From NCBI GenBank assembly GCA_964423505.1, contig CAYREX010000003.1, forward strand, positions 76,817 through 140,816: a DNA stretch of 64,000 bases, written 5' to 3'. Of this stretch, positions 25,338 to 43,733 are shown piece by piece. The notes under the pieces were generated by a model that saw nothing but the letters and a program-made list of their open reading frames with translations, did no database searches and was not told the origin of the DNA. This stretch comes from an uncultured bacterium. Its GTDB lineage: Bacteria; Fermentibacterota; Fermentibacteria; Fermentibacterales; JCC-6. A program made the translations under genes and the position numbers. How positions within the stretch are numbered: position 1 is the stretch's first letter; every line of letters starts with the position of its first letter.

Positions 25338-25594
25338 GCACCTCCCTACGCCGGCATTACCCGGATCAGGTACTCAGGGTATGATCTCAGCCCCGTCGGG
25401 CACCCCTCAATCGCACAATATAGCCTCCGAGGCCTCTCCGGGCTACCTGGGCCGCCACGCTGCCGCGGGGTCGTCTTGACGATATAATTCCGGGAGGCAT
25501 ATCTTCCTAAGCTGTTCCGCAGGGCCCCGGCCCGCGGATGCAGGCCCGTCCGTGGACCCGCCGGTGGACCACCCCTCGACCTGGAGATGACCGT

Positions 25595-30297: not shown

Positions 30298-31497
30298 TCA
30301 CTGCGCCAGCAGGTCCGGCTTTCGTCCATGCCCGTCGTCCAGCCCCTTGACCACATGCAGGTAGACCCTGGTGGTCTCCAGGCTCCTGTGCCCCAGCAGC
30401 TCCTGTATCTCACAGAGGTCGACGCCCTTCATCAGCAGGTGCGTGGCGAACGAATGCCGAAGCGTGTGCACCGTGGCGTGCTTCCGTACCCCGGACTCCC
30501 TGACGGCCCTTCTCATAGCCCTCTGCACAACCGAGTAGTGCATGTGGTGACGCCGCACCGCACCCGACTCCGGGTCGACCGAGGGCCCAGACGCCGGGAA
30601 CAGGTACTGCCACTTCCACTCCAGGCCTGCCCCCGGGTACTTCCTCTCCAGAGCGAAGGGAAGCGATACCGGCACTCTCTCCCCGCTGAAGCCGTCCCTG
30701 ACCCGCTCCAGCTGCTCCTCGAGAGCAGGCACCAGAGACCTGCTGAGCAGGGTCACCCTGTCCTTGTCCCCCTTGCCTCCCCGGACCGTCAGGGAGCACC
30801 CGTCCGGGTCCAGGTCCTGCACGCGAAGCGACAGGGCTTCACCCAGCCTGAGACCGCTCGAGTAGATGATGCGCAGCACCAGCCCGGCCACTCCGTCCAC
30901 AAGCGACAGCACCCTGGACACCTCGGCAGGGGAGAGGACCACAGGCAGCCTCTTCGGCTTCCGAGCCCGAACCGCGTCGATGCCCTCCGGCTCCCTTCCC
31001 CATACGTTCCGGAACAGGAAGAGCACCGCGTTGAAGGCCTGATTCTGCGTTGACGATGCAACCTTCTTCCTCAGCGCCAGGAAGGACATGTAGTCTCGGA
31101 AGGAGGAATCCTCCCTCGGCTCCAGCTCCCGCTCCCGACAGAAGCAGAGGTACTTCCGGGACCAACCAGAGTAGGTCTTCACGGTGCTCCTGGAGTAGTG
31201 CCGGACCCGCAGCGCATCCACCAGCGCGGCTACCGGATCGGATGAAACCGAGACAGCCTCGTTACCCTCCTCGACACCCGCGAACCTGGAGTAGAGCTTC
31301 ACCGCATCCAGAGCCTGCCTGATCTGCCAGTCCTTCCGCCCCTCCTTCTCGAGCGCATCCGCATACTCATGCTCTCCCGGCCGTCCCAGAGCCCGGTAAT
31401 GCCTGACCCACCAGAGCATGAAAGGGACCTGCTTCTCCCGCACCAGCTTCAGCGACTGCAGATACTCCTCGAATCCATCAATAGAAGCCCGAGTCAT
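30298..31497 (-). CDS. intI: Integron integrase (IntI-family tyrosine recombinase) with about 70-aa N-terminal extension
   Basis: Long colinear similarity to IntI1 as I recall it: RLPVVLSPAEV, GLRLGEALSLRVQDLD, GKGDKDR, the IntI-specific insertion LPFALERKYPGAGLEWKWQYLFPAS, ...SGAVRRHHM, HTLRHSFATHLL and LGHRSLETTRVYLHV. Start set at the ATG 31497 preceded by GGTGGGAGGG. The 5' 100 codons of the longer ORF are AT-rich and belong to attI/cassette 1. Confidence 0.9.
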   Translation of the reverse strand: MTRASIDGFEEYLQSLKLVREKQVPFMLWWVRHYRALGRPGEHEYADALEKEGRKDWQIRQALDAVKLYSRFAGVEEGNEAVSVSSDPVAALVDALRVRHYSRSTVKTYSGWSRKYLCFCRERELEPREDSSFRDYMSFLALRKKVASSTQNQAFNAVLFLFRNVWGREPEGIDAVRARKPKRLPVVLSPAEVSRVLSLVDGVAGLVLRIIYSSGLRLGEALSLRVQDLDPDGCSLTVRGGKGDKDRVTLLSRSLVPALEEQLERVRDGFSGERVPVSLPFALERKYPGAGLEWKWQYLFPASGPSVDPESGAVRRHHMHYSVVQRAMRRAVRESGVRKHATVHTLRHSFATHLLMKGVDLCEIQELLGHRSLETTRVYLHVVKGLDDGHGRKPDLLAQ

Positions 31498-31527
31498 ATT
31501 GCCCTCCCACCTATACGGCTGCAGCAT

Positions 31528-31684
31528 AACAACGCCATTCCCAGCGTTAGTGTACGCATGTTCACTACCCCTTGTCAAGATACAAGCATTGACTAGCAGT
31601 AGCCGTGCAGCTATTCTCATGCAGCGTAACCAGGCAGCCGGCATACACAGCAGCCGCAGAATCATTGTTAGAGCTAAGGAAAAA
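31528..31684 (+). promoter_or_regulatory. Putative attI / cassette promoter (Pc) region of the integron
   Basis: Located between the intI start and the first cassette ORF. TTGACT (31589-31594), 17 bp, TATTCT (31612-31617) is oriented toward the cassettes. A GTTAGAG box at 31667-31673 resembles the attI1 GTTRRRY crossover site. A GTAC-N4-GTTC palindrome at 31551-31562 lies upstream of intI. Confidence 0.35.
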
Positions 31685-32638
31685 ATGGGAAACAGAAGTA
31701 GAGCTGAAATCTGGAAACAACAGAAATACAACAACTCCTGTGCTTGGGATTGCTTATCCATGCTTCTCAAAACGCAAGGAGTTGAAACAAGCTCCATCGA
31801 GCTTGTCGGTTCAACTCAGGTTCCCTACCAACTCCGTCTTCATCCAGAAGAGAATCGACTTACTGCAGGTATGCTCGTTCAAGCCGATGAAAATGTTAAT
31901 CTTGCACTCGGGCAATACGGCTTTAAACTTCAGAGCACTAGAGTATCGACAATCGCTGAATACGTTAAGCTCGCAGAGGAAACATTACTTTCTGGGGAAG
32001 CCTTCGTCACAAGTATTAAGAGACCAGATGATTTGCCAGGAAGACATGCCGTGGTTTTCACAGGATTAGAAGATTCAATCTTTAAAGGGCTTGATCCTGA
32101 TTGCCGTCTTGATCGAACTACGGACTATCACTACTCCGATGTTCATGATATCGTAACTCTTGATCTTGAGCAAGAAGAATTCCATCAAAGGGTTACTGGC
32201 GATACAGGGTATGTTCCACTTCTTGGTGTACTAGTTTCCTGCGACCCTTTCAAGATCAATCCTGAAATAATGAAAAATATGTTCAGTAGAAGTAAGGAAG
32301 CTCTTGATTTCTATGAGTCTGCTACAGGTGAACTTGACTTCCAGAGCTCCAAATCGATGCCTGTTATCTACAATGTGCTAAAACCTGTTTTATCTGACTT
32401 ACGAACAGCAATCGAAATCCGAGATGAGTATCAGAATCGAGATTCAGAGATTGCCTTATTCCTGAAAGAATTTGAAACCGGAATCCTGGAGTTTCGGAAA
32501 CTAACAAAGAATAATGAAGCAATACCGGAGAAACTTACCGAGAGATTGAGTGCTTCCCTTGCAAGATCTTACGAACTTCTTGAGAAGCACCTGTCTTTTG
32601 AGATGTACAGAAGAAAAGAGGCTCTAACCACTGAATGA
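31685..32638 (+). CDS. Cassette 1: putative papain-like (C39-like) cysteine peptidase
   Basis: AAGGA RBS then ATG at 31685. N-terminal QQKYNNSCAWDCLSMLLKTQG resembles the catalytic Cys block of C39/papain-fold peptidases. AT-rich codon usage. Stop lies inside attC1. Confidence 0.55.
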   Translation: MGNRSRAEIWKQQKYNNSCAWDCLSMLLKTQGVETSSIELVGSTQVPYQLRLHPEENRLTAGMLVQADENVNLALGQYGFKLQSTRVSTIAEYVKLAEETLLSGEAFVTSIKRPDDLPGRHAVVFTGLEDSIFKGLDPDCRLDRTTDYHYSDVHDIVTLDLEQEEFHQRVTGDTGYVPLLGVLVSCDPFKINPEIMKNMFSRSKEALDFYESATGELDFQSSKSMPVIYNVLKPVLSDLRTAIEIRDEYQNRDSEIALFLKEFETGILEFRKLTKNNEAIPEKLTERLSASLARSYELLEKHLSFEMYRRKEALTTE

Positions 32639-32700
32639 ACCTGTCACAGCCGTCAAGGTACGGGCTACGTAATACCTGTGCAGGTTATTCAGATTGTTCG
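32621..32700 (+). repeat. attC site 1
   Basis: GCTCTAACCACTGAATGAACCTG ... CTGTGCAGGTTATTCAGATTGTTCGGC. R''/L'' almost identical to attC11, 3' box GTTCGGC. Confidence 0.55.
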
Positions 32701-32717
32701 GCATAGGAAAGGGGATA

Positions 32718-33128
32718 GAAGTGCAGAAACTAATCACATGTGCGCTGATCGTTCTGACTTGTTCGATCGTGCTTGCGGGTGAGGTAGCGGACGAGGTGAC
32801 CTTCAGGACAGCGCAACCTGCTCCAACCGATATCATATCCTGGAGTTTCTTCTGGGTGATGCCTGAGATTGCACCGGATGCAACGCTTGAATATGCGGTG
32901 ATCCAGCCTGATGGTGAGGAGTATTTCCGGATGGCTATTCCTGCTGAAACTCCATCAGGAAGTCCAATTCGCTCGGATTTCCGTGAAGGTCTTGCCGGTG
33001 GCAATCCGGAGGTATTCAGCGGTCATAACATCCAGTTCACTTTCACAGTGGACATCGGCACAATCCAGTTCCCGGATGGTGCAACATTCCTCTTCGAGTT
33101 CACAGAAGTCGTCGAGGCAGTTAGATAG
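32718..33128 (+). CDS. Cassette 2: small secreted hypothetical protein
   Basis: GTG start after AAAGGGGA. Signal peptide LITCALIVLTCSIVLAG. Confidence 0.45.
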   Translation, partial: EVQKLITCALIVLTCSIVLAGEVADEVTFRTAQPAPTDIISWSFFWVMPEIAPDATLEYAVIQPDGEEYFRMAIPAETPSGSPIRSDFREGLAGGNPEVFSGHNIQFTFTVDIGTIQFPDGATFLFEFTEVVEAVR

Positions 33129-33134
33129 GGATTG

Positions 33135-33211
33135 CCGAACAACTGCATGAACCATCTACGAGCGGAGCTGTTTGAGCTAGGTGGTCGTAATGGTTATGCA
33201 GAGCGTTCGAA
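33135..33211 (+). repeat. attC site 2
   Basis: GCCGAACAACTGCATGAACCAT ... ATGGTTATGCAGAGCGTTCGAA. Family-1 attC, 3' box GTTCGAA. Confidence 0.6.
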
Positions 33212-33225
33212 GACGAGGAAGAAGC

Positions 33226-34074
33226 GATCGCGCTATGAAAGTCTCGTTCACACTGAAACCCGACCAGAAGTTGATTCTTCGCATTCTTCGCGAGGCGGGC
33301 AAAGTCCATTACCCAGTCCTACGCCGAGTTCTAGAGGCGATTGAGCATTCCGAGTCCGATTTCGACGCCTTCGTGAAGGCGGTCGCTGACAAAAGGGAGT
33401 TCGATTTCCGACCCGACTGGCAGAAACCAAAGCTGACGGAGTTGGAACGTACCCTCGAGGGATTGCTCTTCGTTGGTCTGATCGAACAGTCATTCCACTC
33501 GGATGGACAAATCAGAGTCTTCATGGGGGACACCGGCCTGACCAACAGTGACATTGCTCTCACGACCGAAGGCGAGAGAGTCGCCAAGAGCATCAAGGAG
33601 GAGCGACGCCTAATTCTGAGGCCGGCACCGACACGGCGCACCACAATCTTCGTCGCCTGTGCTTTCGGGCATGATGAGGTCGATTTGCTTTATGAGAAGC
33701 ACTTCCTTCCCGCGTGCCAAAGTGCGAACTACGAGGCAGTCCGAGTGGATATGACCGAACCGAAGCAGAGCATCACAGAAGCGATTCTCGAGGGTATTAC
33801 GGAGTGTGCTTGCGTCATCGCCGATCTGACATACGCTCGACCTTCCGTCTACTTCGAGGTCGGTCTTGCCCACGGCCTCGGAATTCCGCTGCTCTTGACG
33901 TGCAGATCAGATCACCACCGGGGCAAGGCGGACGACAAGAAGGTTCACTTTGACCTCGAACAGTACAAAATCAGTTTCTGGAAGCAAACACCCAAGGGTG
34001 ATTTCAGTTGGCCAAAGAACATGAAGCCAACTGCACGTCTGTCTGCATTGGTGCCAAAGCGGACGGGAGAATGA
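33226..34074 (+). CDS. Cassette 3: wHTH domain fused to a nucleoside-2-deoxyribosyltransferase-like (Ndt/TIR-like Rossmannoid) domain
   Basis: C-terminal TIFVACAFGHDEVDLLY...ECACVIADLTYARPSVYFEVGLAHGLGIPLLL matches the Ndt-fold signature (F-E-x-G-x-A, active-site Glu). The N-terminal about 110 aa are wHTH-like. ATG 33226 is the first start outside attC2. Confidence 0.6.
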   Translation, partial: DRAMKVSFTLKPDQKLILRILREAGKVHYPVLRRVLEAIEHSESDFDAFVKAVADKREFDFRPDWQKPKLTELERTLEGLLFVGLIEQSFHSDGQIRVFMGDTGLTNSDIALTTEGERVAKSIKEERRLILRPAPTRRTTIFVACAFGHDEVDLLYEKHFLPACQSANYEAVRVDMTEPKQSITEAILEGITECACVIADLTYARPSVYFEVGLAHGLGIPLLLTCRSDHHRGKADDKKVHFDLEQYKISFWKQTPKGDFSWPKNMKPTARLSALVPKRTGE

Positions 34075-34085
34075 CAAAGAAGCTT

Positions 34086-34172
34086 CGAACAAGAGCGTGG
34101 AGCTCGACTTCGGGTTAGCCGCGCCGCTTCGCTCTGCGGCACCCCCGAAGCGGCTCACGCTCGACGTTAGCT
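34086..34172 (+). repeat. attC site 3
   Basis: CGAACAAGAGCGTGGAGCTCGAC ... GCTCACGCTCGACGTTAGCT. Third sequence family, 3' box GTTAGCT. Confidence 0.55.
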
Positions 34173-34179
34173 GGAAGGG

Positions 34180-34953
34180 ATGCAAATGCCTATCGGCAGA
34201 AATCGTGTTTTTGAAATCATCGGAACAAAGCCAAGAAATCCACAATGGGCCTGGTGCGCAATTTCTCCGAACTACGAAAGAGTTGTATTTACTCTATGGG
34301 CTGATGAATTACTCGGTGACAGATATCTATTGTTTAGAGATCGACGAACCAATTCGCTAAACCGCAGCGAAAGAGATCTAAAAGAGAAGCTCGATCTTGC
34401 AATGGAGATGAACATTCCAGCTTATGGGTTGGTATGCGAAGCGCGCAATGTAAATGCACCAATAAGAAAAATAGGAAAGGTACATGCAGATTATCTTGTC
34501 AAATTGAGATTGCAGAAGGACGAGGAAGGGATTTATGCAATAGATATTGGCAAGGTTCAACTTGCTGAGATTGTGAGTGAAGAGAAGGCTAAGAGAGAGG
34601 CAACGGAGAATAACGGTCTTAACGATATAAATTCAATCCCACCAGGTTCTGAGTCTCCTGATAGAGCCCATGTTGAGGGCTTAATAGTCAAGAGGGACCC
34701 CAAAGTCAGGCGGTATGTTATTGAACAAGCTGAAGGGAAGTGTGAGTTCTGCGGGAAGCAAGGGTTCCAAATGGACTCAGGTAGGAGGTATCTAGAAGCT
34801 CACCATGTAATCACACTCTCTAATCAGGGAGCTGATACTGTGGAAAATGTTATTGCATTATGTCCGGAACACCATAGAGAAGCACATTATGGGGTGAATG
34901 CAGAGGAGTTGGAAGAACAATTCTTGGAATGTATTAACAACAGAAACGGGTAA
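34180..34953 (+). CDS. Cassette 4: HNH endonuclease with unknown about 150-aa N-terminal domain
   Basis: C-terminal CEFCGKQGF...LEAHHVITLSNQGADTVENVIALCPEHHREAHYG is a canonical HNH finger. The N-terminal domain is uncharacterised. Confidence 0.75.
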   Translation: MQMPIGRNRVFEIIGTKPRNPQWAWCAISPNYERVVFTLWADELLGDRYLLFRDRRTNSLNRSERDLKEKLDLAMEMNIPAYGLVCEARNVNAPIRKIGKVHADYLVKLRLQKDEEGIYAIDIGKVQLAEIVSEEKAKREATENNGLNDINSIPPGSESPDRAHVEGLIVKRDPKVRRYVIEQAEGKCEFCGKQGFQMDSGRRYLEAHHVITLSNQGADTVENVIALCPEHHREAHYGVNAEELEEQFLECINNRNG

Positions 34954-34984
34954 GAGTCGCCTTCTGGAGACACACTATTATCAG

Positions 34985-35032
34985 CTAACAACAAAATGCA
35001 GCAGAACTGCGTGCAGGTGTTCAGAAGTAAGT
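34985..35032 (+). repeat. Possible short attC site 4
   Basis: GCTAACAACAAAATGCAGCAGAACTGCGTGCAGGTGTTCAGA. R''-like GCTAAC, short imperfect stem, 3' GTTCAGA. Confidence 0.35.
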
Positions 35033-35162
35033 GTATCGCAGTCTGCTGATTTTGAGTGTTGTGGGATTCAATGGCCGGCCTGCTGGCTAGCCCGGCGAAG
35101 GATGACAAGAGGACAAAGAGAACATATTTATGGTGTAGGCAATGCGAACAGATAGACACGGG

Positions 35163-35366
35163 ATGAAAATGGAATACGGATCAAAATCAATGCCCGCCCT
35201 AATCGCCAGCCCAGAACTCTATGCATCCCTTGCGAAGAACAAGCAGACCTACTGGACAACAGGAACCGGCCCGGCTCGAAGGCACGGAGCTTGGAGTATA
35301 GAGCTGCTGGAATACTGCCATAGTGGAGTGAATGGTATCAAGAAATATATGAGATCAAAGGCATAA
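35163..35366 (+). CDS. Cassette 5: possible small ORF (67 aa)
   Basis: Only ORF in the about 500-bp cassette between attC4 and attC5. Weak. Confidence 0.2.
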   Translation: MKMEYGSKSMPALIASPELYASLAKNKQTYWTTGTGPARRHGAWSIELLEYCHSGVNGIKKYMRSKA

Positions 35367-35462
35367 CGACATAAAGAAAACAAGGATAAAGCAAAGAGAA
35401 CAAAGGACATAGGACAAAGACAGGAGCTTGGGCGCAGGCAAGCAAGGAGACAATAGCTGCCC

Positions 35463-35543
35463 ACAACAACAGCATGAACCAGGCGCGGGGGGCAGTTGGA
35501 CGTGCGAGGGTAGTTCCCGCGCTGGTTATGCTGGATGTTATGT
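35463..35543 (+). repeat. attC site 5
   Basis: CACAACAACAGCATGAACCAGGCG ... CGCGCTGGTTATGCTGGATGTTATGT. Family 1, 3' box GTTATGT. Confidence 0.6.
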
Positions 35544-35562
35544 GAGATAGGGAGTATACGAA

Positions 35563-36243
35563 ATGGAAACAGTAGACATCATTTTAGAAGTACTGTTGTT
35601 ACTCGGTTTGCTGTATCTTGCTCTCTTCAAATCGTATTTTAAGGAGAAAGGGAAAAACCTAGCAACTCGGGAAGATATCCAGGAGATCACTTCTCTTGTT
35701 GAGACCTTAAGAGCAAAAATAGAATACTCATTGCAGGCGAAATTGGTACTAAGGCGAGAAGAGCATGAATCACTATTACACTACTACTCTTGTCTATCTA
35801 AGTGGATTCACACAATATCGAGCTTCAGTTTTGCAGGAATAACATACGATACATTACACATGATTAATGAAAGAATCAGTAGTGTGAACATATGCTATTC
35901 GGAAACGATATTGGCATTTTCAAAAGTAGAACTACTGGTTAATAATGATAAGTTGAGAGCAGAGGGCCATGGTCTGATTAGAAGAGTACTAAAATATCAA
36001 AATAGAACAATTAAGATGTGTGGTGACTATCATCTCTTATGTCTTGAGATCCATGCGGAAGAGAAAAGATTAAAGGATGGTGAGCGTGTTGAGGAATGGG
36101 CTAAAGTAATTGCAAAGCAACAAATAGCAATAAAGAAATACTATGAAGAGCAAGCTAGCGAATATGGAACTCTGTTAAGGTACATAATACCACATATGGA
36201 GACTATATCAGCACATTTAGAAGAGATCGTTAAGGAGGAGTGA
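35563..36243 (+). CDS. Cassette 6: hypothetical protein with N-terminal TM helix
   Basis: AT-rich ORF with TM helix ILEVLLLLGLLYLALF. Follows attC5 by 20 bp. Confidence 0.5.
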   Translation: METVDIILEVLLLLGLLYLALFKSYFKEKGKNLATREDIQEITSLVETLRAKIEYSLQAKLVLRREEHESLLHYYSCLSKWIHTISSFSFAGITYDTLHMINERISSVNICYSETILAFSKVELLVNNDKLRAEGHGLIRRVLKYQNRTIKMCGDYHLLCLEIHAEEKRLKDGERVEEWAKVIAKQQIAIKKYYEEQASEYGTLLRYIIPHMETISAHLEEIVKEE

Positions 36244-36299
36244 TAACTACTAATCACAAGAATAAATGCAATGAGATGTGGGCAAAACAGAGACCAGCA

Positions 36300-36379
36300 C
36301 ATAACCACAGCATGAACCAGCCGCGGGGCAGTTGAATATGCGAGGTTGATTCCCGCGCTGGTTATGCTGAGTGTTACAG
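36300..36379 (+). repeat. attC site 6
   Basis: ACCACAGCATGAACCAGCCGCGG ... CGCGCTGGTTATGCTGAGTGTTACAG. Family 1. Confidence 0.6.
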
Positions 36380-36523
36380 AAGTAGGACGGCGGCGTCTGA
36401 GAACATAGAGCAAACAGAATCGGGCACATCGGAAATCGGGCCCATAGAACAAGAAAAAGCCGCCGCCGTGAAAAAATAGGAAACCGGAGATCGGACAACC
36501 GGACAGCGACAGAGGAGACAGAG

Positions 36524-36600
36524 CCTGTAACAATGGGCTGTAGCTGAATCGCGCGACTGTACCGTCAACCTGTGCAATCAGCTAAGCCCAAGCGTTGTGG
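36524..36600 (+). repeat. attC site 7
   Basis: GTAACAATGGGCTGTAGCTGAATCGC ... CAATCAGCTAAGCCCAAGCGTTGTGG. Family 2, like attC8. Confidence 0.55.
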
Positions 36601-36626
36601 GTTGAAATGAAAAGAGGCATTCTAAG

Positions 36627-36869
36627 TTGGGAGGACAGCGTATGAAAGCGAAGAAGATATACTGGGCGAACCCCCATTCTGATGGAGGTTGGGCAGTTCA
36701 GAAATCTAGATTTGGAGGAACGATATCCAAGCATTCTACCCAATCCAGTGCATGGAAAACTGCTCGCCGCATGGCTTGCGGTACGGAATCAGATGCAATA
36801 CTGCAGGACCAGCAGAAGAGAATTGTGACAAGACATACATACTCAAATGAGACTTTAGAAGAAGATTAA
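36627..36869 (+). CDS. Cassette 8a: DUF2188-like small protein
   Basis: KKIYWANPHSDGGWAVQKSRFGGTISKHSTQSSAWKTARRMA fits the DUF2188 pattern as I recall it. Confidence 0.5.
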   Translation: MGGQRMKAKKIYWANPHSDGGWAVQKSRFGGTISKHSTQSSAWKTARRMACGTESDAILQDQQKRIVTRHTYSNETLEED

Positions 36870-36870
36870 T

Positions 36871-37731
36871 ATGCGAGCATATATACCTCTTGCGATAGTC
36901 TATGACTTCGATGGAACACTTGCTCCTGGCAACATGCAGGAAAGAGATTTCATTCCAGCAATTGGCATGACACAACAAGCGTTCTGGGATGAAGTCAATA
37001 GTGAAGCAAAACAACATCAGGCAGATAATATCCTCGTATATATGAAATTGATGCTAGATAAAGCTAGACAGGCTCAAGTAACAGTTCAAGAGGATGATTT
37101 CAAAGACTATGGACGTCGCCTGTCATTCTACGAAGGGATCTTGCCTAATGAAGAACAGTCAGATCCAGGTTGGTTCGCGAGAATCAATTATTATGGCAGA
37201 GGTGCTAGCATAGCAGTCAAGCACTATGTTGTCTCTTCAGGTATCCGAGAGATGATAAAGGGTACACGAATCGCAAACCAGTTTGAGGCGATTTTTGCAT
37301 CCTCATTTTGCTATGAACATCATGGTATTGCTGTATGGCCAGCCTTGGCTCTTAATTACACATCCAAGACGCAATATCTATTTAGGATTAATAAGGGCTG
37401 TCTTGATGTTAGCGAACATGTGCAAATTAACAAATACTTACCCGAAAATGATAGACCAGTACCGTTTAGGAACATGATCTATATTGGCGATGGAGCTACT
37501 GACATTCCTTGTATGCGAGTAGTAAAGGACAGGGGAGGTTGTACAATTGCTGTGTATAAGCCCCACACTCCTGGAGCCAGGGCCAATGTTCAACAACTTG
37601 TTAAAGAAGGTAGGGCAAACTGCATTGCATCAGCGAAATACAACGAAGGCAGTACTCTTGATAAGATAGTCAAGACATACATAGATCATCTGCAGTTCTA
37701 CTATGCATATAAGCGCTTGCAAGAAACATAG
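36871..37731 (+). CDS. Cassette 8b: HAD-superfamily hydrolase (phosphatase-like)
   Basis: HAD motif I VYDFDGTL, motif II VVSSG, motif IV IYIGDGATDIPCM. Starts 2 bp after the DUF2188 stop, in the same cassette. Confidence 0.7.
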   Translation: MRAYIPLAIVYDFDGTLAPGNMQERDFIPAIGMTQQAFWDEVNSEAKQHQADNILVYMKLMLDKARQAQVTVQEDDFKDYGRRLSFYEGILPNEEQSDPGWFARINYYGRGASIAVKHYVVSSGIREMIKGTRIANQFEAIFASSFCYEHHGIAVWPALALNYTSKTQYLFRINKGCLDVSEHVQINKYLPENDRPVPFRNMIYIGDGATDIPCMRVVKDRGGCTIAVYKPHTPGARANVQQLVKEGRANCIASAKYNEGSTLDKIVKTYIDHLQFYYAYKRLQET

Positions 37732-37733
37732 AG

Positions 37734-37818
37734 CCCACAACAAGCGGCTGTAGCGGAATTGCTGCCGGCCTGGGGGGGGGCTGAGTCTATCGCAATCCGC
37801 TAAGCCACAGCGTTATGC
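37734..37818 (+). repeat. attC site 8
   Basis: CACAACAAGCGGCTGTAGCGGAATTGC ... GCAATCCGCTAAGCCACAGCGTTATGC. Family 2. Confidence 0.6.
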
Positions 37819-37837
37819 GTAAATACGAACCGGAGAA

Positions 37838-38602
37838 ATGGAGATCATGACAATACCGGATGAAACGAAAATACTGGATGAAGATGAAGTCCAGCGTCTT
37901 CTAGGGTTAATGCTAGGCGCTCTCCCTTATACTGTAAAGGAAATGTTAGTACTGAAAGATATCAATCCGGAGGATTCGATTCGTATTAGATCGCTCTCAA
38001 AATCTTTTCAGAAAGCCCGTGAAACTGCCAAGGAAATGCTTAAGGATACATCCAGCAAAACCAAGATTCCTCAATATCGAATCCGAGCAATCGAAGAAGG
38101 CAAGTTGGCTGAGATCAAACCGGAATTCCTAAAACAGCTAAGCCGATACTTCGGACTAGATGAATGGTGTTCTCGTTGGGCAACCGTGAACACAGAACTA
38201 GCATCTGGACTTGGGATGTTTTCCTGGGTAGAACTCGGGAAACGAAGAAATGGGAAAGGATTGCCCGTATCTGTATTGTCAGATTCAGAGAAACAGCTTA
38301 AGGATTTCGTGGAATCCCGCCGACCTGAAGAGCACATAAGATCGGAATTGGATATTGGTTATCGGATCACAGGTAAAAGTTTCGAGATATTTGAAATCCG
38401 GCCAAGATGGAAGCAACCGGACATTACACAAGAAATCTCAGTTGCCAAGGCAACCTATGTTAAAAGTAGAAAAATATGGAAACTCTATTGGATGCGCGCT
38501 GATTTGAAATGGCACAGGTATGATCCTCTACCTGACACAAAATCGCTCCAGGATGTGCTTAACGAAATTGGCGAGGATCCGTATTGCTGTTTTTGGGGAT
38601 GA
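37838..38602 (+). CDS. Cassette 9: XRE-type HTH fused to a DUF3024-like C-terminal domain
   Basis: Central IRAIEEGKLAEIKPEFLKQLSRYFGLD (Cro/C1-type HTH). The C-terminal W-rich block KIWKLYWMRADLKWHRYDPL...DPYCCFWG resembles DUF3024. Confidence 0.5.
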   Translation: MEIMTIPDETKILDEDEVQRLLGLMLGALPYTVKEMLVLKDINPEDSIRIRSLSKSFQKARETAKEMLKDTSSKTKIPQYRIRAIEEGKLAEIKPEFLKQLSRYFGLDEWCSRWATVNTELASGLGMFSWVELGKRRNGKGLPVSVLSDSEKQLKDFVESRRPEEHIRSELDIGYRITGKSFEIFEIRPRWKQPDITQEISVAKATYVKSRKIWKLYWMRADLKWHRYDPLPDTKSLQDVLNEIGEDPYCCFWG

Positions 38603-38606
38603 AAGA

Positions 38607-38685
38607 GCGCATAACCAACGCATGAACCAGACGCTTGTAAGGGAATAGGTTAGGGTTACAGCGCTGGTTACGCGTATTGTTAAGT
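38607..38685 (+). repeat. attC site 9
   Basis: GCGCATAACCAACGCATGAACCAGACG ... CAGCGCTGGTTACGCGTATTGTTAAGT. Family 1. Confidence 0.6.
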
Positions 38686-38706
38686 AGCGATAGAAGGAAG
38701 AGCATA

Positions 38707-39381
38707 ATGGTACCTATTCTGTATGGGATAGCGAGTGGAATCGCATTACTGTTAATCAAGATGTTATGGGTTAAGGGACATTATAGATTCAAGATGAAGA
38801 TAGTGAATAATTCATTTCCTGTAAGCGGTGCAAATGTAGCAGTTATTCTTGGCAGTAAGTACTTCGAGAGCGAGAGCTCAAGGCAACTGCTATATGTACC
38901 GCTCACGGGTGTATCAGCATATGCAAAGCTATCAACATTGCTCAGTAAGTATGGATCCGATGTTAGTTTCTATGTGGATAAGACCGTACCAAAGGATAAG
39001 CGCATTACCTTTGAGATATGCATAGGTGGAAAGCATAGTAGCGTTCGCACAGAGCACTACTTGAAGAAGCATTGTTCTCGGATGTTTCACCCCAACGGTA
39101 GTACTCTAACTCCCAACGAAGCGCGAATTGTAAAACTAGACAGAACGTTCGAAGATGGCAAGAAGAAGTCAGTCCTCATTATCTATGGGCAGAACCGATT
39201 TGACACCATGTGTGCAATAGCCTACTTCTGCGAGTACTTCGAAGAACTGGTGCGGAAGCAGTTTGCTAGAGATCATGCAGCAATCCGTCTGGAGACAGAT
39301 CCTCAACTTGGGCATTATGATGCGGAGTATAAGGCCGATGACACACACTTGATAGACCTATGTCAAGTAGATGCTACTTAA
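38707..39381 (+). CDS. Cassette 10: hypothetical protein with N-terminal TM anchor
   Basis: ATG 38707 is the first start outside attC9. TM helix ILYGIASGIALLLIKMLWV. Confidence 0.5.
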   Translation: MVPILYGIASGIALLLIKMLWVKGHYRFKMKIVNNSFPVSGANVAVILGSKYFESESSRQLLYVPLTGVSAYAKLSTLLSKYGSDVSFYVDKTVPKDKRITFEICIGGKHSSVRTEHYLKKHCSRMFHPNGSTLTPNEARIVKLDRTFEDGKKKSVLIIYGQNRFDTMCAIAYFCEYFEELVRKQFARDHAAIRLETDPQLGHYDAEYKADDTHLIDLCQVDAT

Positions 39382-39454
39382 CAAGCGGCTGCAGCGGCAT
39401 TGCGGTAGGGTAGCAACCGGTATAGGTGCAATCCGCTGAGCCTTAGTGTTAGCA
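39378..39454 (+). repeat. attC site 10
   Basis: TAACAAGCGGCTGCAGCGGCATTGC ... GCAATCCGCTGAGCCTTAGTGTTAGCA. Family 2, nearly perfect stem. Confidence 0.6.
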
Positions 39455-39469
39455 TGGAAATGAGGAAGA

Positions 39470-40543
39470 ATGGGAAAAGCAGCGATTTTCCTTGGTGCTG
39501 GCGCTTCTAAGGCGGAGGGTGCTCCTCTGCAAGGAGAGTTGTTCACTGAATACTTTGCATCTGATGCATTCAAGAATAGCTATAAAGATATTGACAGAGA
39601 ACTTGCAACGTTTTTCCTCTGTAACTTCAGAATTGACCTAGACCATCAAGACATATCATCGATTAGCTTTCCCACATTCGAGGAAGTTCTTGGTTTGGTT
39701 GATCTTGCCATTCTTAGAAAAGAATCATTCCGAGAGTTTGAGATTGAGAATAGAGCATCCAACAGTGGGCGCTTAAGATTCATAGGCCAGTATCTTGTAT
39801 TTCTGTTGGCAAGGGTTCTAGATGATAAGCTGAAGGGTCACAACGGCATTCATCAGAAATTGGTACGAACACTACATGATACTGGTATTCTAAGAGATGT
39901 GACTTTTATAACTACAAATTATGACATACTTATCGACAATGCATTAGTAAAGCTGGAAAAGCATGATGTTGATGTTGACTACGGAATTGAGTTCCGTAAT
40001 TTCGGAACTCAAAACAATTGGCGACGCCCAAGAATGGATAAGAAGGTATCACTATACAAACCGCATGGATCGTTAAATTGGCTGCTATGCCCAACTTGCA
40101 GTGAACTCGATATTACACCGAAAGAGAAGGGAGTTGTCAGACTTATCTCTGATTTTGCAAATGCAACATGTCCAGAGTGCGAAAGTGTTTATGTGCCTCT
40201 CATTGTACCTCCGATATATTACAAAGATATGAGCAATGTATTCCTGAGTTCAATATGGAATCGAACTGATGCTTCTTTACGGAAAGTGGACCATGTAATC
40301 TTCTGCGGATATTCCTTTCCTGATGCTGATATGCATATTAAGTATTTAATGAAAAGAGCTCAGACTAATCGTAAAAACCCTCTTAGAATTACGGTTATGA
40401 ACTATCACCCAGGAAAAACAGAGTCAGAATCCAGAAGTGAAGAGAATAGGTACAAGCGGTTCTTAGGAAAACAAGTGAAGTATACAGATAAATCATTTGA
40501 ATGGTTTGCAGATAATCCTATGGATGTTTTGGGAAATTCTTGA
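39470..40543 (+). CDS. Cassette 11: standalone SIR2-like protein (SIR2_2 / DUF4020-type, predicted NAD+-consuming effector)
   Basis: N-terminal MGKAAIFLGAGASKAEGAPL (GAGxS motif of the SIR2_2 clade) and ...KPHGSLNW downstream. 357 aa, single gene between attC10 and attC11. Confidence 0.7.
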   Translation: MGKAAIFLGAGASKAEGAPLQGELFTEYFASDAFKNSYKDIDRELATFFLCNFRIDLDHQDISSISFPTFEEVLGLVDLAILRKESFREFEIENRASNSGRLRFIGQYLVFLLARVLDDKLKGHNGIHQKLVRTLHDTGILRDVTFITTNYDILIDNALVKLEKHDVDVDYGIEFRNFGTQNNWRRPRMDKKVSLYKPHGSLNWLLCPTCSELDITPKEKGVVRLISDFANATCPECESVYVPLIVPPIYYKDMSNVFLSSIWNRTDASLRKVDHVIFCGYSFPDADMHIKYLMKRAQTNRKNPLRITVMNYHPGKTESESRSEENRYKRFLGKQVKYTDKSFEWFADNPMDVLGNS

Positions 40544-40544
40544 T

Positions 40545-40622
40545 GCTAACCACTGCATGAACCAGCTACGAACAGATCTGATTGACCCGGGGTAGTCGTG
40601 CTGGTTATACAGAATGTTAGGC
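40545..40622 (+). repeat. attC site 11
   Basis: GCTAACCACTGCATGAACCAGC ... GTGCTGGTTATACAGAATGTTAGGC. 3' box GTTAGGC fits the GTTRRRY consensus and the 5' box is close to its reverse complement. Confidence 0.65.
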
Positions 40623-40641
40623 AGGAAAGGAGATACATGCC

Positions 40642-41070
40642 ATGTCGCTACACGCATCCGAGATTCTGGCATGTCCCAAGTGCGGACATAAACAGGCAAC
40701 TCTCATCTGGCAGTCGCTGAATGTTACCCTTGACCCCGGCCAGAAGCAGAACCTCTTTGATGGAAAGATAAATGTACTTGAATGCACGCAGTGCGGGAAC
40801 AAGGCATTCGTCGATGCACCTTTTCACTATCACGACATGAATCTCGAGTTTTACGTGCGGTATGTTCCCTTGGCATCTCTAGAGCATCCAGAGACATTTG
40901 ACGACTTTCTTGCGAATGGATTTCCATCCATGGAAGAGAACGAAGATATGGGAATACCGGCGGATTCATACTTGCGCACTATCCATATTGTTTTTGATAT
41001 GGGTGAATTGGTGCGCTATGTGATGTTCCGCGAATGTCTGGCCAACATCAAGCAAGGTAAGAAGGCCTAA
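40642..41070 (+). CDS. Cassette 12: CpXC-domain zinc-ribbon protein
   Basis: CPKCGHKQ ... CTQCGNKAF pairs characteristic of CpXC proteins. Confidence 0.6.
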   Translation: MSLHASEILACPKCGHKQATLIWQSLNVTLDPGQKQNLFDGKINVLECTQCGNKAFVDAPFHYHDMNLEFYVRYVPLASLEHPETFDDFLANGFPSMEENEDMGIPADSYLRTIHIVFDMGELVRYVMFRECLANIKQGKKA

Positions 41071-41126
41071 CCATCGAATAGAGGGTATCGGCGCATACGC
41101 GCCGAACCGTCATTGACACGTTCGGC
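41065..41126 (+). repeat. attC site 12 (short)
   Basis: GCCTAAC (41065-41071) ... perfect hairpin GCCGAACCGTCATTGACACGTTCGGC ... 3' box GTTCGGC. Confidence 0.45.
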
Positions 41127-41192
41127 TACCAGAACCGGACTTGCATCTCAGAGAGAGTATATGTATCTACATAGTAGAGACGGGAGGATACT

Positions 41193-41435
41193 ATGCTTGC
41201 ACGAATCCAGAAATGGGGCAACAGCCTAGCGGTTCGAATCCCCAAAGCCTTCGCGAAGGAAATGAACGTGTCTGATGGTGGAGCTGTCAACATGACAATC
41301 GATGACGGAAAGATCGTCATCAGTCCTGAGATAGAGCAGGTCTACCGACTGGATGACCTTCTGGAGGAGATAACCTCGGAGAATCTTCATGCTGAGGTCG
41401 AGTCCGGAGAGGTAGTTGGGCAGGAGATTTGGTGA
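41193..41435 (+). CDS. mazE: Cassette 13a: MazE/AbrB-type antitoxin
   Basis: IQKWGNSLAVRIPKAF (SpoVT/AbrB swapped-hairpin motif). Overlaps mazF by 7 bp. Confidence 0.75.
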   Translation: MLARIQKWGNSLAVRIPKAFAKEMNVSDGGAVNMTIDDGKIVISPEIEQVYRLDDLLEEITSENLHAEVESGEVVGQEIW

Positions 41436-41776
41436 AGACAGATGAGTGCTGCCCTGGGAGGGGGGATATCGTCTGGCTCTCCTTCACACCCCAGGCAGGC
41501 CATGAACAGGCAGGCATACGTCCTGCACTAGTCCTGTCTCCCAAATCGTACAACCGGAAAACAGGTCTTGCATTGTACTGTCCGGTTACGACAGTAGTGA
41601 AAGGCTATCCGTTCGAGGTTGCCATTCCACCTGACCTTGAGGTTTCCGGAGTTATTCTATCGGACCAAGTGAAGAGCCTGGACTGGAGAGCACGAAAGGC
41701 AGAGTTAATCTGCAGACTCCCAGATGCCGTGACCAGAGAAGTACTCGGCAAGGTGGGCACTCTTGTTCGGGACTAG
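41429..41776 (+). CDS. mazF: Cassette 13b: MazF/PemK-family endoribonuclease toxin
   Basis: GDIVWLSFTPQAGHEQAGIRPALVLSPKSYNRKTGLALYCPVTT matches PemK/MazF. Confidence 0.8.
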   Translation: MVKTDECCPGRGDIVWLSFTPQAGHEQAGIRPALVLSPKSYNRKTGLALYCPVTTVVKGYPFEVAIPPDLEVSGVILSDQVKSLDWRARKAELICRLPDAVTREVLGKVGTLVRD

Positions 41777-41779
41777 AGA

Positions 41780-41859
41780 GCCGAACAGCAGCATGAACCA
41801 GCCAACAGGGCAGAGCTGATCGAACGGGTGTTCCGTGCTGGTTATGCTGAGTGTTCGAG
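41780..41859 (+). repeat. attC site 13
   Basis: GCCGAACAGCAGCATGAACCAGCC ... CGTGCTGGTTATGCTGAGTGTTCGAG. Family 1. Confidence 0.6.
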
Positions 41860-41908
41860 TTCCGGCATGACTTGACAACCACCACCATAGAGGTATAGAT
41901 ATTATACC

Positions 41909-42169
41909 ATGGTGTTCGAATACGATGCTCGTAAGAGCAAGAGAAACTTGGAGAAGCACGGGATCGACTTCGAGGAGTCGCAGCTTCTCTGGGATGATCC
42001 GGACCTGCTGGAGATTCCGGCAAGGACCGAAGATGAAACGCGATTCATGGTGATCGGTCGGATAGACAGCTCCCATTGGTCTGGGATCATCACCTATCGC
42101 GGAGAGGCGGTTCGAATCATCTCCGTCCGCAGATCCCGTAACGAGGAGGTGGTGCTGTATGAAGGCTAA
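41909..42169 (+). CDS. brnT: Cassette 14a: BrnT (DUF497) ribonuclease toxin
   Basis: MVFEYDARKSKRNLEKHGIDFEESQLLWDDP matches the BrnT N-terminus. Confidence 0.75.
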   Translation: MVFEYDARKSKRNLEKHGIDFEESQLLWDDPDLLEIPARTEDETRFMVIGRIDSSHWSGIITYRGEAVRIISVRRSRNEEVVLYEG

Positions 42170-42386
42170 GGACCTGGACAAGAAGTTCGATGACGGTGAG
42201 GATGTCCTCAGATACCTCGAACTCAGCAAGGCCCGTCGTGTTGAGCAGGAGCAGAAGCGAGTCAATGTGGACTTCCCCATTTGGATGATTCACTCGCTGG
42301 ACAAGGAAGCAAAGCGACTGGGTATTCCCAGGCAGTCCCTGATCAAGATGTTGATCGCCAGGCATATCGAGGAAGCCAGAGCATAG
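42159..42386 (+). CDS. brnA: Cassette 14b: BrnA (CopG/RHH-like) antitoxin
   Basis: Overlaps brnT by 11 bp. C-terminal ribbon-helix-helix-like IPRQSLIKMLIARHIEEA. Confidence 0.7.
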   Translation: MKAKDLDKKFDDGEDVLRYLELSKARRVEQEQKRVNVDFPIWMIHSLDKEAKRLGIPRQSLIKMLIARHIEEARA

Positions 42387-42391
42387 AGACT

Positions 42392-42462
42392 CGAACAAGC
42401 GGCTGCATTGGTCTTGCAGCATTGCGACACCTGACAGAGGACAACGCATAGTGCTTCTTAGT
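42392..42462 (+). repeat. attC site 14 (diverged)
   Basis: CGAACAAGCGGCTGCATTGGTCTTGCAGCATTGCGAC... has a family-2-like 5' half and a degenerate 3' half. Confidence 0.4.
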
Positions 42463-43116
42463 GGACACCCAGATCCGCGCACTTCTGAGAGGAGCCCGAG
42501 CACCAGATATTCCTGAGGTTGAGTACCCACTCTATCTCATGCGGTCTTCCGTGCCCAGGCTCCGGTGGAAGGATGTTATGGCGGCAAGCATAATGCAAGA
42601 GCACGGGCGGAGCGTCCGTAGCCTTGCGCGGGATCTGGGTGTCCATTGACAGGAGTATCTGGTATTCGAGTCTATCACGGTCCTGGATACCGGGTCTGCT
42701 TCAAGAATCGGGGGAAGAGCCTGGTGATCATATTGGCCGGTGGTGACAAGCGGACACGAAAGAAGATCGAGAAGGCGTTGCGCCTGGCACGAGATCTATC
42801 GGAGAGAGAGAAGAGAATTAGCAGGACCAAGACTACTCGATTCGAAACCGCTGAGCATCGTCGAGCTCCAGAGAAAATGGCCGCACATCTTGAAGCATGC
42901 CTTGAGGAGTCCAACGGAGATGCGGCGTTTGTAGCGAAGGCACTCGGAGATATCGCGAAAGCAAAGGGAATGACGCAGGTTGCACGCGATGCTGGTCAGT
43001 CTCGAGAGCCTGTACAAGGCTCTGTCGGGCAAACGTACACCCCGGTTCGACACCCTTCTGAGAGTAGCACATGCCCTCGGGATGGAGCTTCACGCGGCAC
43101 CACTGAATCGCTGAAA
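42461..43116 (+). pseudogene. Cassette 15a: decayed higB-like (addiction-module killer, COG3657) / higA-like (antidote) toxin-antitoxin pair
   Basis: IRVYHGPGYRVCFKNRGKSLVIILAGGDKRTRKKIEKALRLARDL matches the killer C-terminus. It runs without a stop into the antidote sequence KTTRFETAEH...MAAHLEACLEESNGDAAFVAKALGDIAKAKGMTQVARDAG. The antidote C-terminus (SLYKALSGKRTPRFDTLLRVAHALGMELHAAPLNR, ending 43116) is in a different frame after a 2-nt loss in a GAGAG run near 43003. The killer N-terminus is also out of frame. Confidence 0.5.
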
Positions 43117-43193
43117 TCGACTGGCCAACAACAGCATGCAGCTGGAAAGCTGCTGATGTTGAGCGTTCGGCCTTATGAAATGAGAGGTGCAGC

Positions 43194-43610
43194 ATGGGAG
43201 CTATAGCAGACTCGATCATCGCGTACGCGAAACCGCTGCTCGACGAAGCTGATGGTTCACTCGAGGACATGAACAATGCCTTGTCACTTGCTCAGCTATG
43301 TTGGAATCTCGCACTGTTACCGGAAAAGGAACGTGACGCAAGACTCGCAAAGATGCAGTCGGCCCTCGCGATGGATGACACGGAATTCGAGGATTTCCGG
43401 CAATCGATCGTCCTGCCGATGATCCAGAGGCACCATGACATGTTTCCTAACATGCCCAGGCACGGGTCTGCGAAGGCGTCGAGAGCAAGGGTGCAACCGC
43501 AGCGACGGGCGGCGGCAACGCCGCAGGCAAAGAGATATCCTGGAACTGCACGCAACGCGCCGTGCCCGTGCAATAGCGGAAAGAAGTACAAACGTTGTTG
43601 CGGACGGTAG
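43194..43610 (+). CDS. Cassette 15b: UPF0149/YecA-like protein with C-terminal SEC-C zinc motif
   Basis: C-terminal APCPCNSGKKYKRCCGR is the SEC-C metal-binding motif. Confidence 0.6.
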   Translation: MGAIADSIIAYAKPLLDEADGSLEDMNNALSLAQLCWNLALLPEKERDARLAKMQSALAMDDTEFEDFRQSIVLPMIQRHHDMFPNMPRHGSAKASRARVQPQRRAAATPQAKRYPGTARNAPCPCNSGKKYKRCCGR

Positions 43611-43651
43611 GCTGGCATCGTTGTCCACGGAACGCGTGCGAAGAGCTGGCC

Positions 43652-43733
43652 AAACAAGCGCCTGCAGTTGAACGGGCACGTCCGGCCGCTTCGCGGGGTC
43701 GCGCACCCGTCTACTGAGGCGCACCGTTATGCC
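43652..43733 (+). repeat. attC site 15 (GC-rich variant)
   Basis: CAAACAAGCGCCTGCAGTTGAACGGGCACG ... CGCACCCGTCTACTGAGGCGCACCGTTATGC. Family-2-like ends, 3' box GTTATGC. Confidence 0.45.

Follow-up and report, generated by a model that had tools for sequence, protein, structure and literature searches.

The window analysed here is a stretch of 64,000 nucleotides from an uncultured bacterium of the phylum Fermentibacterota (order Fermentibacterales, JCC-6; GenBank assembly GCA_964423505.1, contig CAYREX010000003.1, positions 76,817 to 140,816 of the forward strand). It contains an integron, and the third cassette after attI encodes a protein of 279 residues in which a winged helix-turn-helix (wHTH)-like N-terminal domain is joined to a C-terminal N-glycosidase-like domain of the superfamily of nucleoside 2-deoxyribosyltransferases (NDT), DNPH1 and TIR domains. 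The cassette is mobile and promoterless and carries one gene; neither a second open reading frame (ORF) nor an antitoxin lies between its two attC sites. On balance, our analysis leads us to think that the protein is a self-contained sensor and effector in a single chain, an N-glycosidase that would act against phage by abortive infection. The family is new, and the design principle is already known. The gene and its product are made up as follows.

33235..34074, + strand: coding sequence of the 279-residue wHTH-like/NDT-like protein, TGA stop included (ORF list, sequence, starts of homologues, ratio of nonsynonymous to synonymous divergence, dN/dS)
33235..33612, + strand: N-terminal domain, residues 1-126, winged-helix-like and fast-evolving (AlphaFold2 models, Foldseek)
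33604..33639, + strand: conserved basic linker R124-R135, RRLILRPAPTRR (R124 and R129 at least 90% conserved; a coil in the model)
33634..34071, + strand: C-terminal NDT/DNPH1/TIR-superfamily N-glycosidase-like domain, residues 134-279 (PF05014, PDB profile matches, Foldseek, PADLOC PDLC00733)
33856..33858, + strand: codon of Glu208 (invariance; falls on the catalytic Glu in both T. brucei NDT and rat Rcl)

An earlier note, made by reading the sequence, had assigned the C-terminal half of the protein to the NDT fold, and the comparisons with known families and structures agree with it. The Pfam family PF05014 (Nuc_deoxyrib_tr) matches the window protein with 28.9 bits, 0.1 bit over its cut-off of 28.8; across the family, 55 of 56 members match at E<=1 (best E 8e-9), with several of the scanned relatives under the cut-off. 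The whole protein was modelled with AlphaFold2 from a 56-sequence alignment (predicted local distance difference test, pLDDT, 89; predicted template-modelling score, pTM, 0.81). In the model, strands and helices alternate over residues 134-279, with five strands in a Rossmann-like arrangement, and no other fold is predicted for this half. A Foldseek comparison with the PDB ranks the NDTs of Chroococcidiopsis and Trypanosoma first (E 9e-5 to 7e-4, best probability 1.0), followed in the lower ranks by human and rat DNPH1 and MilB, and then by SPARTA, TLR1 and plant TIR domains (E about 2e-3 and above). The profile of the full-length family found nothing significant among PDB sequences; a profile of the domain only, widened with distant relatives, matched T. 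brucei NDT (E 1.1e-4) and rat Rcl/DNPH1 (E 1.3e-4). NDT, DNPH1 and MilB (PF05014, clan Nribosyltransf) are the best matches in sequence and fold among solved structures, and share with the cassette protein a Rossmann-like fold and a Glu in a hydrophobic-aromatic-E-x-G motif after strand 3, at the point where the following helix begins. Pfam TIR models (PF01582, PF13676) do not match the window protein at E<=1, and TIR_2 matches 6 of the 56 members weakly (best E 0.004). The PADLOC profile PDLC00733 ('Effector', described as 'TIR') matches the window protein with E 2.8e-6 and its relatives down to 3.8e-15, over the catalytic domain only. In a fold search of BFVD, the best match is annotated as a CMP/hydroxymethyl-CMP hydrolase and the second is a CAP12/Pycsar TIR protein.

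The alignments place an acidic residue of the family at the position of the catalytic Glu of these enzymes. In the matches of the domain profile, the family string 'ADLTYARPSVYFE(A/V)G' falls on 'ADLSPFRGHEPDCGTAFEVG' and 'AEVTQPSLGVGYELG', with Glu208 aligned to the residue that is the catalytic Glu in T. brucei NDT (FEVG) and Glu93 in rat Rcl/DNPH1 (YELG); Glu93 holds the ribose hydroxyls in the rat enzyme (PMC3834327). Glu208 is invariant in all 56 family sequences and also in a 16-sequence superfamily alignment that includes 15 distant relatives, and is predicted to serve as catalytic nucleophile or general acid-base. The motifs quoted in the earlier note were found in the protein: IFVACAF occupies residues 138-144, with the acidic loop GHDEVD after it, and residues 204-221 are SVYFEVGLAHGLGIPLLL, with the Glu that is conserved in homologues.

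Other positions depart from the canonical enzymes. The Tyr of strand 1 in NDT and DNPH1 (Tyr7 of NDT, Tyr24 of human DNPH1) is catalytic; here it is replaced by Phe139, which is invariant in the family. Mutant structures Y7F (NDT) and Y24F (DNPH1) are present in the Foldseek list of PDB matches, which fits with that Tyr having been regarded as important for catalysis. Six residues before the Glu lies Arg202, at least 90% conserved, at a position where Asp92 of the Lactobacillus NDT reads the 5'-OH. In rat Rcl the same column holds Ser87, which in DNPH1 binds the 5'-phosphate (PMC3834327). Because the catalytic Tyr has become Phe139 and the residue facing the 5'-group has become Arg202, the site would be that of an active N-glycosidase with a phosphorylated substrate, and not that of a nucleoside transglycosylase. 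The remaining invariant or nearly invariant residues are Asp172, Glu175, Asp197, Tyr206, His227, His238, Asp240, Lys245, Trp249, Trp259 and Arg268; Asp172, Asp197, Glu208, Gly210 and Asp240 are retained even in the most distant relatives. Asp172, His238, Asp240, Lys245 and Trp249, all invariant in the family, have no counterpart in the aligned stretches of NDT and Rcl, and there is an additional conserved block towards the C-terminus, CRxDH...VHFDLxQYKISxW. The protein thus differs from NDT and DNPH1 in Phe139 for Tyr, in Arg202 for Asp or Ser87, in this C-terminal block and in its N-terminal fusion, and differs from NDT, DNPH1 and MilB in genomic setting, as those are housekeeping genes and this one resides on mobile elements.

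The N-terminal domain was described in the earlier note as a winged-helix-like module that could sense nucleic acid. The first half of this description holds weakly, at the level of fold. When residues 1-126 were modelled separately (pLDDT 81), the leading Foldseek matches were nearly all winged-helix proteins (MarR, PadR, HxlR-like, replication terminator, ORC) with E 0.025-0.12 and TM-scores of 0.3-0.5; none of the Pfam HTH models matches the window protein. A poorly predicted insertion of about 30 residues separates helices 2 and 3, an insertion at about residues 52-68 is variable, and the wing loop is long (88-104). The second half of the description finds no support in the properties of the domain. 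Its net charge is near neutral (-1 in the window protein; family mean -0.1), the helix at the recognition position (residues 69-80) is acidic with a net charge of -4, and only three to four basic positions are conserved, those well conserved within the domain being just R115, R124 and R125.

The domain also evolves about twice as fast as the enzyme domain, with a mean pairwise identity of 27% against 57%, and its length varies among homologues from 106 to 186 residues. The difference in identity, together with the variable insertions, gives it a sensor-like character. We propose that the N-terminal domain is a sensor or autoinhibitory module that would hold the enzyme inactive until an infection cue appears, with a phage protein or small ligand a more likely target than nucleic acid. 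Engagement of the sensor might then lead to oligomerization or to release of the enzyme domain, which would cleave the N-glycosidic bond of an abundant 5'-phosphorylated nucleotide. The leading candidate for the substrate is nicotinamide adenine dinucleotide or its phosphate, NAD(P)+, by analogy with the N-glycosidase of retron Eco1 and with DUF4062/TIR enzymes; adenine nucleotides or deoxy-nucleotides are alternatives. Depletion of the nucleotide would starve or arrest the infected cell and halt replication of the phage.

That the ORF is carried by a cassette is established by its surroundings. An attC site lies on each side, an integron integrase gene is present and one ORF occupies the space between the crossover points; the word cassette in the earlier note is correct. 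The features concerned are:

33206..34166, + strand: complete gene cassette, 961 base pairs, one ORF (two crossover points; the same ends recur in L033, an unrelated metagenomic contig)
33133..33212, + strand: attC of the preceding cassette, R' G|TTCGAAG at 33205 being the 5' boundary of the target cassette (covariance model, 64 bits)
34083..34173, + strand: the target cassette's own attC, R'' CTTCGAAC at 34083 and R' G|TTAGCT at 34166 (predicted fold -28 kcal/mol, covariation, covariance model 51.6 bits)
30298..31797, - strand: integron integrase gene intI (TIGR02249, 328.6 bits against a cut-off of 265; PF00589; PF13495)
31545..43733, + strand: cassette array, from the attI crossover (G|TTAGTG, about 31545) to the last attC (R'/R'' chain, covariance-model matches, drop in G+C)

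The open frame extends from a GTG at 33181 to the TGA at 34072-34074 on the + strand. Translation is placed at the first ATG, 33235 (MKVSF...), where all 55 aligned homologues begin with MK(V/I)xF. The earlier note had the end of the ORF right at 34074, but the start that it gave, 33226, is an in-frame GAT codon. GTG 33181 was rejected as the start, because the longer frame would overlap the upstream attC and no homologue supports it.

The core sites of the array are linked as a chain, with every R' (GTTxxxx) complementary to the following site's R'' (xxxxAAC); for the target cassette, R'' CTTCGAAC is complementary to the first bases of the cassette, TTCGAAG. Twelve attC sites of the window fit one stem structure, with compensatory changes in 12 of its 17 pairs, and the target's own attC exceeds the neighbouring sites in length and G+C. 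A covariance model built from these 12 aligned sites, and therefore narrow since they come from a single array, finds 14 sites in the window, all 14 on the + strand. Homology of intI spans residues 191-484 of its open frame, and its likely start is near 31497. The integron (30298-43733) is complete and of chromosomal type, with at least 13 attC sites. Between about 31000 and 44000 the G+C drops from 66-77% to 43-59%; the cassettes themselves have 43-55% in a genome of 63-77%, which suggests that they came from donors much less GC-rich than the host. The target cassette probably lies near enough to attI to be read from a Pc promoter. Two short attC-like sites were also seen, one at 41095-41125 (a palindrome of about 30 nucleotides, GCCGAAC...GTTCGGC) and one at 43122-43172 (51 nucleotides, scored at 36.5 bits by the covariance model); both might be recombination sites that have degenerated or lost part of their length.

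A second copy of the cassette occurs on contig L033. It is 87% identical and has the same cassette ends, TTCGAAG...CTTCGAAC, with other neighbours, from which it follows that the cassette has moved between arrays. The interiors of the attC sites are unrelated in the two copies (91 nucleotides at 34083-34173 in the window, 61 at L033:2986-3046) and the R'' sites are identical; the gene may have been kept through a remodelling or an exchange of its attC. Between the copies dS is 0.46 and dN 0.059, and dN/dS is 0.13 (0.13 and 0.12 when calculated for each half). The ratio indicates that the ORF is a selected protein-coding gene.

Relatives of the protein are numerous and scattered. A word-indexed search returned 266 homologues, and a HMMER search of 1.84 billion cluster representatives returned 14,937 matches at E<=1e-3, 5,414 at E<=1e-10 and 177 at E<=1e-30; about 80 clusters at 50% identity match over most of the profile among the matches listed. 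The genome matches are metagenome-assembled genomes (MAGs) of Chloroflexota, Acidobacteriota, Bacteroidota, Verrucomicrobiota, Chlorobiaceae, delta-proteobacteria, Gemmatimonadales and one Methanobacterium. This patchy distribution over phyla points to spread of the family by horizontal transfer. Full-length homologues are found in cassette arrays with IS110-family insertions in one Acidobacteriota and one Chloroflexota MAG, and matches to the attC model in these arrays are on the strand of the gene, one of them directly upstream of it. Around four other homologues the attC model, narrow as it is in deriving from one array, found no sites. One homologue resides in an island of CAP12-TIR, DUF2971 and pentapeptide-TIR proteins and an nSTAND6 ATPase, flanked by IS605 elements, and another adjoins phage terminase genes. 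No neighbour or partner gene is conserved across the homologue loci examined.

Most of the other matches listed belong to a sister clade, whose proteins carry the catalytic module at the N-terminus and, after it, about 200 residues of hypervariable sequence. Its motif string is CFVAMAFG...RVDR.EHN...ADLTYARPSVYFEAGYA...CR.DH...VHFDL, and its members (loci L012-L023 and P0153-P0221; L006:4477-5256) include genes of lysogeny modules in Streptococcus prophages. No description of this clade was found. The idea that its hypervariable C-terminus is a permuted copy of the N-terminal domain studied here was rejected (hhalign probability 0.2%). Of the distant relatives, one comes after a SEFIR protein on a plasmid of Leptospira, one adjoins an integrase on plasmids of Bacillus mycoides, and others belong to Streptococcus prophages; the gene of Javan454 is part of the lysogeny module and shares its strand with the repressor and integrase. 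Distant relatives and members of the sister clade fall in four PHROG families of unassigned function.

The earlier note had found no described defence system of this make-up. This is correct for the family, as judged from PADLOC, NCBIfam, PHROGs and the literature searched, but not for the kind of protein, which has precedents in retron type II effectors, in Swarozyc and in Abi-like fusions of NDT domains. The effectors of type II retrons (Eco1/Ec86, Sen2/St85) consist of an NDT-like domain followed at the C-terminus by a winged helix (PMC7736814; bioRxiv 10.1101/2023.08.16.553469), and the N-glycosidase of retron Eco1 hydrolyses NAD(P)+ (PMC12673091). Like the cassette protein, a retron effector (the 'RcaT' family) unites within some 300 residues a wHTH and an N-glycosidase of the NDT superfamily that bears a catalytic Glu, and it is an abortive-infection toxin (PMC7736814; bioRxiv 10.1101/2023.08.16.553469; PMC12673091). 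The domain order is reversed, NDT-wHTH in the retron and wHTH-NDT here, and the wHTH and NDT surfaces of the retron protein bind msDNA, whereas the N-terminal domain here is not basic. Homology to the Ec86/St85 effector was rejected: hhalign against the E. coli effector (L028:2091-3011) gives a probability of 0.1-0.2%, and PDLC00733 is the sole PADLOC match. Nor were retron partners found, with no reverse transcriptase domain among the array ORFs scanned and no msr/msd RNA nearby, Rfam being empty in the array.

Swarozyc is a single protein in which a DUF4062 (PF13271) TIR-like NADase is combined with an HTH or winged domain that binds the phage portal; portal binding activates hydrolysis of NAD+ and leads to abortive infection, and the distribution of the system is patchy and horizontally driven (bioRxiv 10.64898/2026.05.01.722283). 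The cassette protein has the same general make-up of a TIR/NDT-superfamily domain with a catalytic-position Glu and an HTH or winged domain in one chain, and a patchy distribution as well. Swarozyc demonstrates that winged-type folds can sense proteins. The two differ in catalytic family and have opposite domain orders, and the cassette protein is much shorter and has no helical stalk; PF13271 does not match the window protein at E<=1, and the list of families matched by the 56 members lacks it. That the N-terminal domain here is variable and not basic is the one hint, an indirect one, at activation by a phage structural protein as in Swarozyc.

NDT domains fused to Abi-type N-terminal domains have been predicted to be toxins (Anantharaman et al., 2013; PMC3710099). 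The AbiJ-NTD1-NDT proteins among them resemble the cassette protein in layout, in which some 100-140 alpha-helical residues at the N-terminus are read as a targeting or sensor domain and a predicted toxin of NDT fold makes up the C-terminus (PMC3710099). The PADLOC TIR effector PDLC00733 gives significant catalytic-domain matches throughout the clade, and the CAP12/Pycsar TIR family (PF10137) is represented by the second-best viral fold match. The cassette protein differs from effectors of CBASS and Pycsar in having no SAVED, STING or other nucleotide-sensor domain, and no CD-NTase, nucleotidyltransferase or cyclase domain is present in the cassette or in the array ORFs scanned. Integrons are known to store compact defence genes (bioRxiv 10.1101/2024.07.02.601686; 10.64898/2026.03.17.712381; 10.1101/2025.10.29.685425), and the term deoxyribosyltransferase is absent from these three papers.

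Several observations weigh against a suicidal sensor-effector. Two homologues are isolated insertions among housekeeping genes, which shows that the genomic context is not uniformly defence-like. PADLOC and NCBIfam do not recognise the protein as a system, and NCBIfam has no model for it. The loss of the canonical Tyr could also mean that catalysis has been altered or lost. The wHTH assignment, which derives from a predicted model, is weak. In close copies of the cassette dN/dS is as low in the N-terminal domain as in the enzyme domain, and diversifying selection on the former is not seen at short range. Finally, a profile search with the N-terminal domain alone, looking for its fusion to other effectors, returned five members of the same family only, the word-index prefilter making this a weak negative; such a fusion would have marked the domain as a sensor more strongly than anything else.

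Other functions have been considered for such a protein. It could be a direct-acting N-glycosidase that spares its host, attacking phage-type modified nucleotides (such as 5-hydroxymethyl-dCMP or 5-hydroxymethyl-dUMP, as MilB and DNPH1 do) or else bases modified in phage DNA; it would be placed on nucleic acid by its wHTH-like domain, and would clean the nucleotide pool or make abasic sites in the DNA of the phage while the host survives. DNPH1, which hydrolyses 5-hydroxymethyl-dUMP, and MilB, which hydrolyses hydroxymethyl-CMP, are the nearest solved relatives after the NDTs, and the annotation of the top BFVD match, as a CMP/hydroxymethyl-CMP hydrolase, is in line with them. Arg202, at the phosphate-reading position, suits a nucleotide substrate (PMC3834327). 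Integrons carry compact glycosylases directed against modified phage DNA (bioRxiv 10.1101/2025.10.29.685425), NDT domains have been proposed to act on DNA (PMC3710099), and a harmless constitutive enzyme suits a single-gene cassette that lacks an antitoxin. The resemblance to DNPH1 and MilB, however, is at superfamily level only (14-23% identity). Moreover, the catalytic Tyr of DNPH1 and NDT is an invariant Phe here, the phosphate loop of DNPH1, GSIRGG, is not kept but replaced by CAFGxxxxD, and the N-terminal domain lacks the basic surface expected of a DNA binder. We consider this account unlikely. An account that we find distinctly improbable makes the protein a one-component regulator, in which a non-catalytic NDT-like domain senses a nucleotide or ADP-ribose and controls DNA binding by the wHTH. 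The SLOG domain of ThsA, a related Rossmannoid, is a sensor of this kind; an N-terminal wHTH with a C-terminal ligand-binding domain is the commonest layout of bacterial regulators, and one source labels a homologue as a MarR-family regulator. The DNA-binding part of a regulator should be conserved and basic, but here it is variable and near-neutral, with an acidic putative recognition helix. The Glu at the catalytic position and Asp172, Asp197, Arg202, His238 and Asp240 are invariant or nearly so even in relatives without the wHTH, and a regulator that travels alone in a promoterless mobile cassette lacks a cognate target.

A role in metabolism, as a nucleoside or nucleotide salvage enzyme (a genuine NDT or a deoxynucleoside monophosphate hydrolase) with a regulatory appendage in an ordinary adaptive cassette, seems to us a shade less credible still. 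Passage of the PF05014 threshold speaks for it, but by 0.1 bit, as does the database annotation of relatives as nucleoside 2-deoxyribosyltransferases and the placement of two homologues among housekeeping genes. It has to contend with Phe139 for the canonical Tyr, with Arg202 for the Asp by which the 5'-OH is read, with the additional invariant Asp172, His238, Asp240, Lys245 and Trp249 that are unmatched in NDT and Rcl, with the fusion to a fast-evolving domain, and with a distribution that is patchy and bound up with mobile elements, namely cassette arrays, plasmids, prophages and TIR islands. The least probable of all, in our view very improbable, is that the gene is an addiction-type toxin that stabilises the array, or else a degenerate and inactive remnant of an effector. 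The array does hold MazF, a BrnT/BrnA-like pair and a HigA-like gene, and toxin-antitoxin cassettes stabilise chromosomal integrons (PMC11023631); however, the cassette contains no second ORF or antitoxin. Decay of the gene is at odds with purifying selection on both domains and with motifs that are invariant across phyla.

If the protein is indeed a sensor-effector N-glycosidase, it would be a compact, partner-free immune protein of 279 residues from environmental, non-Vibrio integrons, and the picture of integrons as defence biobanks would be widened to GC-rich environmental bacteria. It would also be the third independent coupling of an NDT/TIR-fold N-glycosidase with a winged-helix-type domain, after the retron type II effectors and Swarozyc. 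Its unusual active site, where Phe takes the place of Tyr, Arg stands where the 5'-group is read and a His/Asp block is added, bears on the question of the substrate. Since the catalytic module is shared by a far bigger clade of uncharacterised proteins (at E<=1e-10, 5,414 clusters, with prophage genes of streptococci among them), a single biochemical characterisation would annotate thousands of proteins. A bolder version, to which we give little credence, is that the enzyme is not an NADase but a nucleotide or DNA N-glycosidase whose specificity is new (modified pyrimidine or purine nucleotides of the phage type are an example), and that it is switched on or targeted by the hypervariable winged-helix-like domain, which would recognise a phage protein. 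The 'DLTYARPSVYFE(A/V)G' module, which in thousands of clusters at 50% identity is N-terminal and accompanied by a hypervariable C-terminal region, would in that case mark out a large and unrecognised superfamily of immune sensors, each a single protein, spread by integrons, plasmids and prophages.

The rest of the array is rich in defence-like and toxin-antitoxin cassettes. The first cassette (31686-32638, + strand) encodes a protein of about 317 residues (MGNRSRAEIWKQQKYNNSCAWDCL...) with no match in Pfam, PADLOC or NCBIfam, and is probably the best expressed, being nearest to attI. The cassette after the target (34180-34953, + strand) encodes a 257-residue HNH protein that matches the PADLOC profile PDLC03656 for type IV methyl-directed restriction (3e-24) and, under the cut-off, an NCBIfam model for a restriction endonuclease of phosphorothioated DNA. 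Two further intervals, 35059-35537 and 36374-36594, have good attC bounds and apparently no convincing ORF. A HAD-type hydrolase at 36871-37731 (+ strand) matches the PADLOC phage defence candidate PDC-S34 (2e-115), and its cassette adjoins one (37838-38602, + strand) that encodes an HTH and DUF3024 protein matching the candidate PDC-S43 (2.5e-46). The cassette at 38677-39381, which precedes that of the SIR2 protein, encodes a 234-residue protein without a family match; the SIR2_2 (PF13289) protein itself, stand-alone and of 357 residues, has its own cassette at 39470-40543 (+ strand) and may be a streamlined SIR2 NADase defence gene.

Structured RNAs were searched for with Rfam, which found none in the array or near the target cassette; the only one, far upstream, is a thiamine pyrophosphate riboswitch at 25326-25417 (- strand; RF00059, 60.2 bits) in the GC-rich host region before the integron. 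Towards the end of the array, a toxin-antitoxin-like cluster (41071-43206, + strand) comprises a small MazE-like ORF with MazF/PemK (41429-41776) and a HigA-like antidote-domain gene (42646-43206), and a reading of the spacer sequence adds a BrnT/BrnA-like pair at about 41900-42380. The cluster fits the stabilisation of arrays by toxin-antitoxin cassettes.

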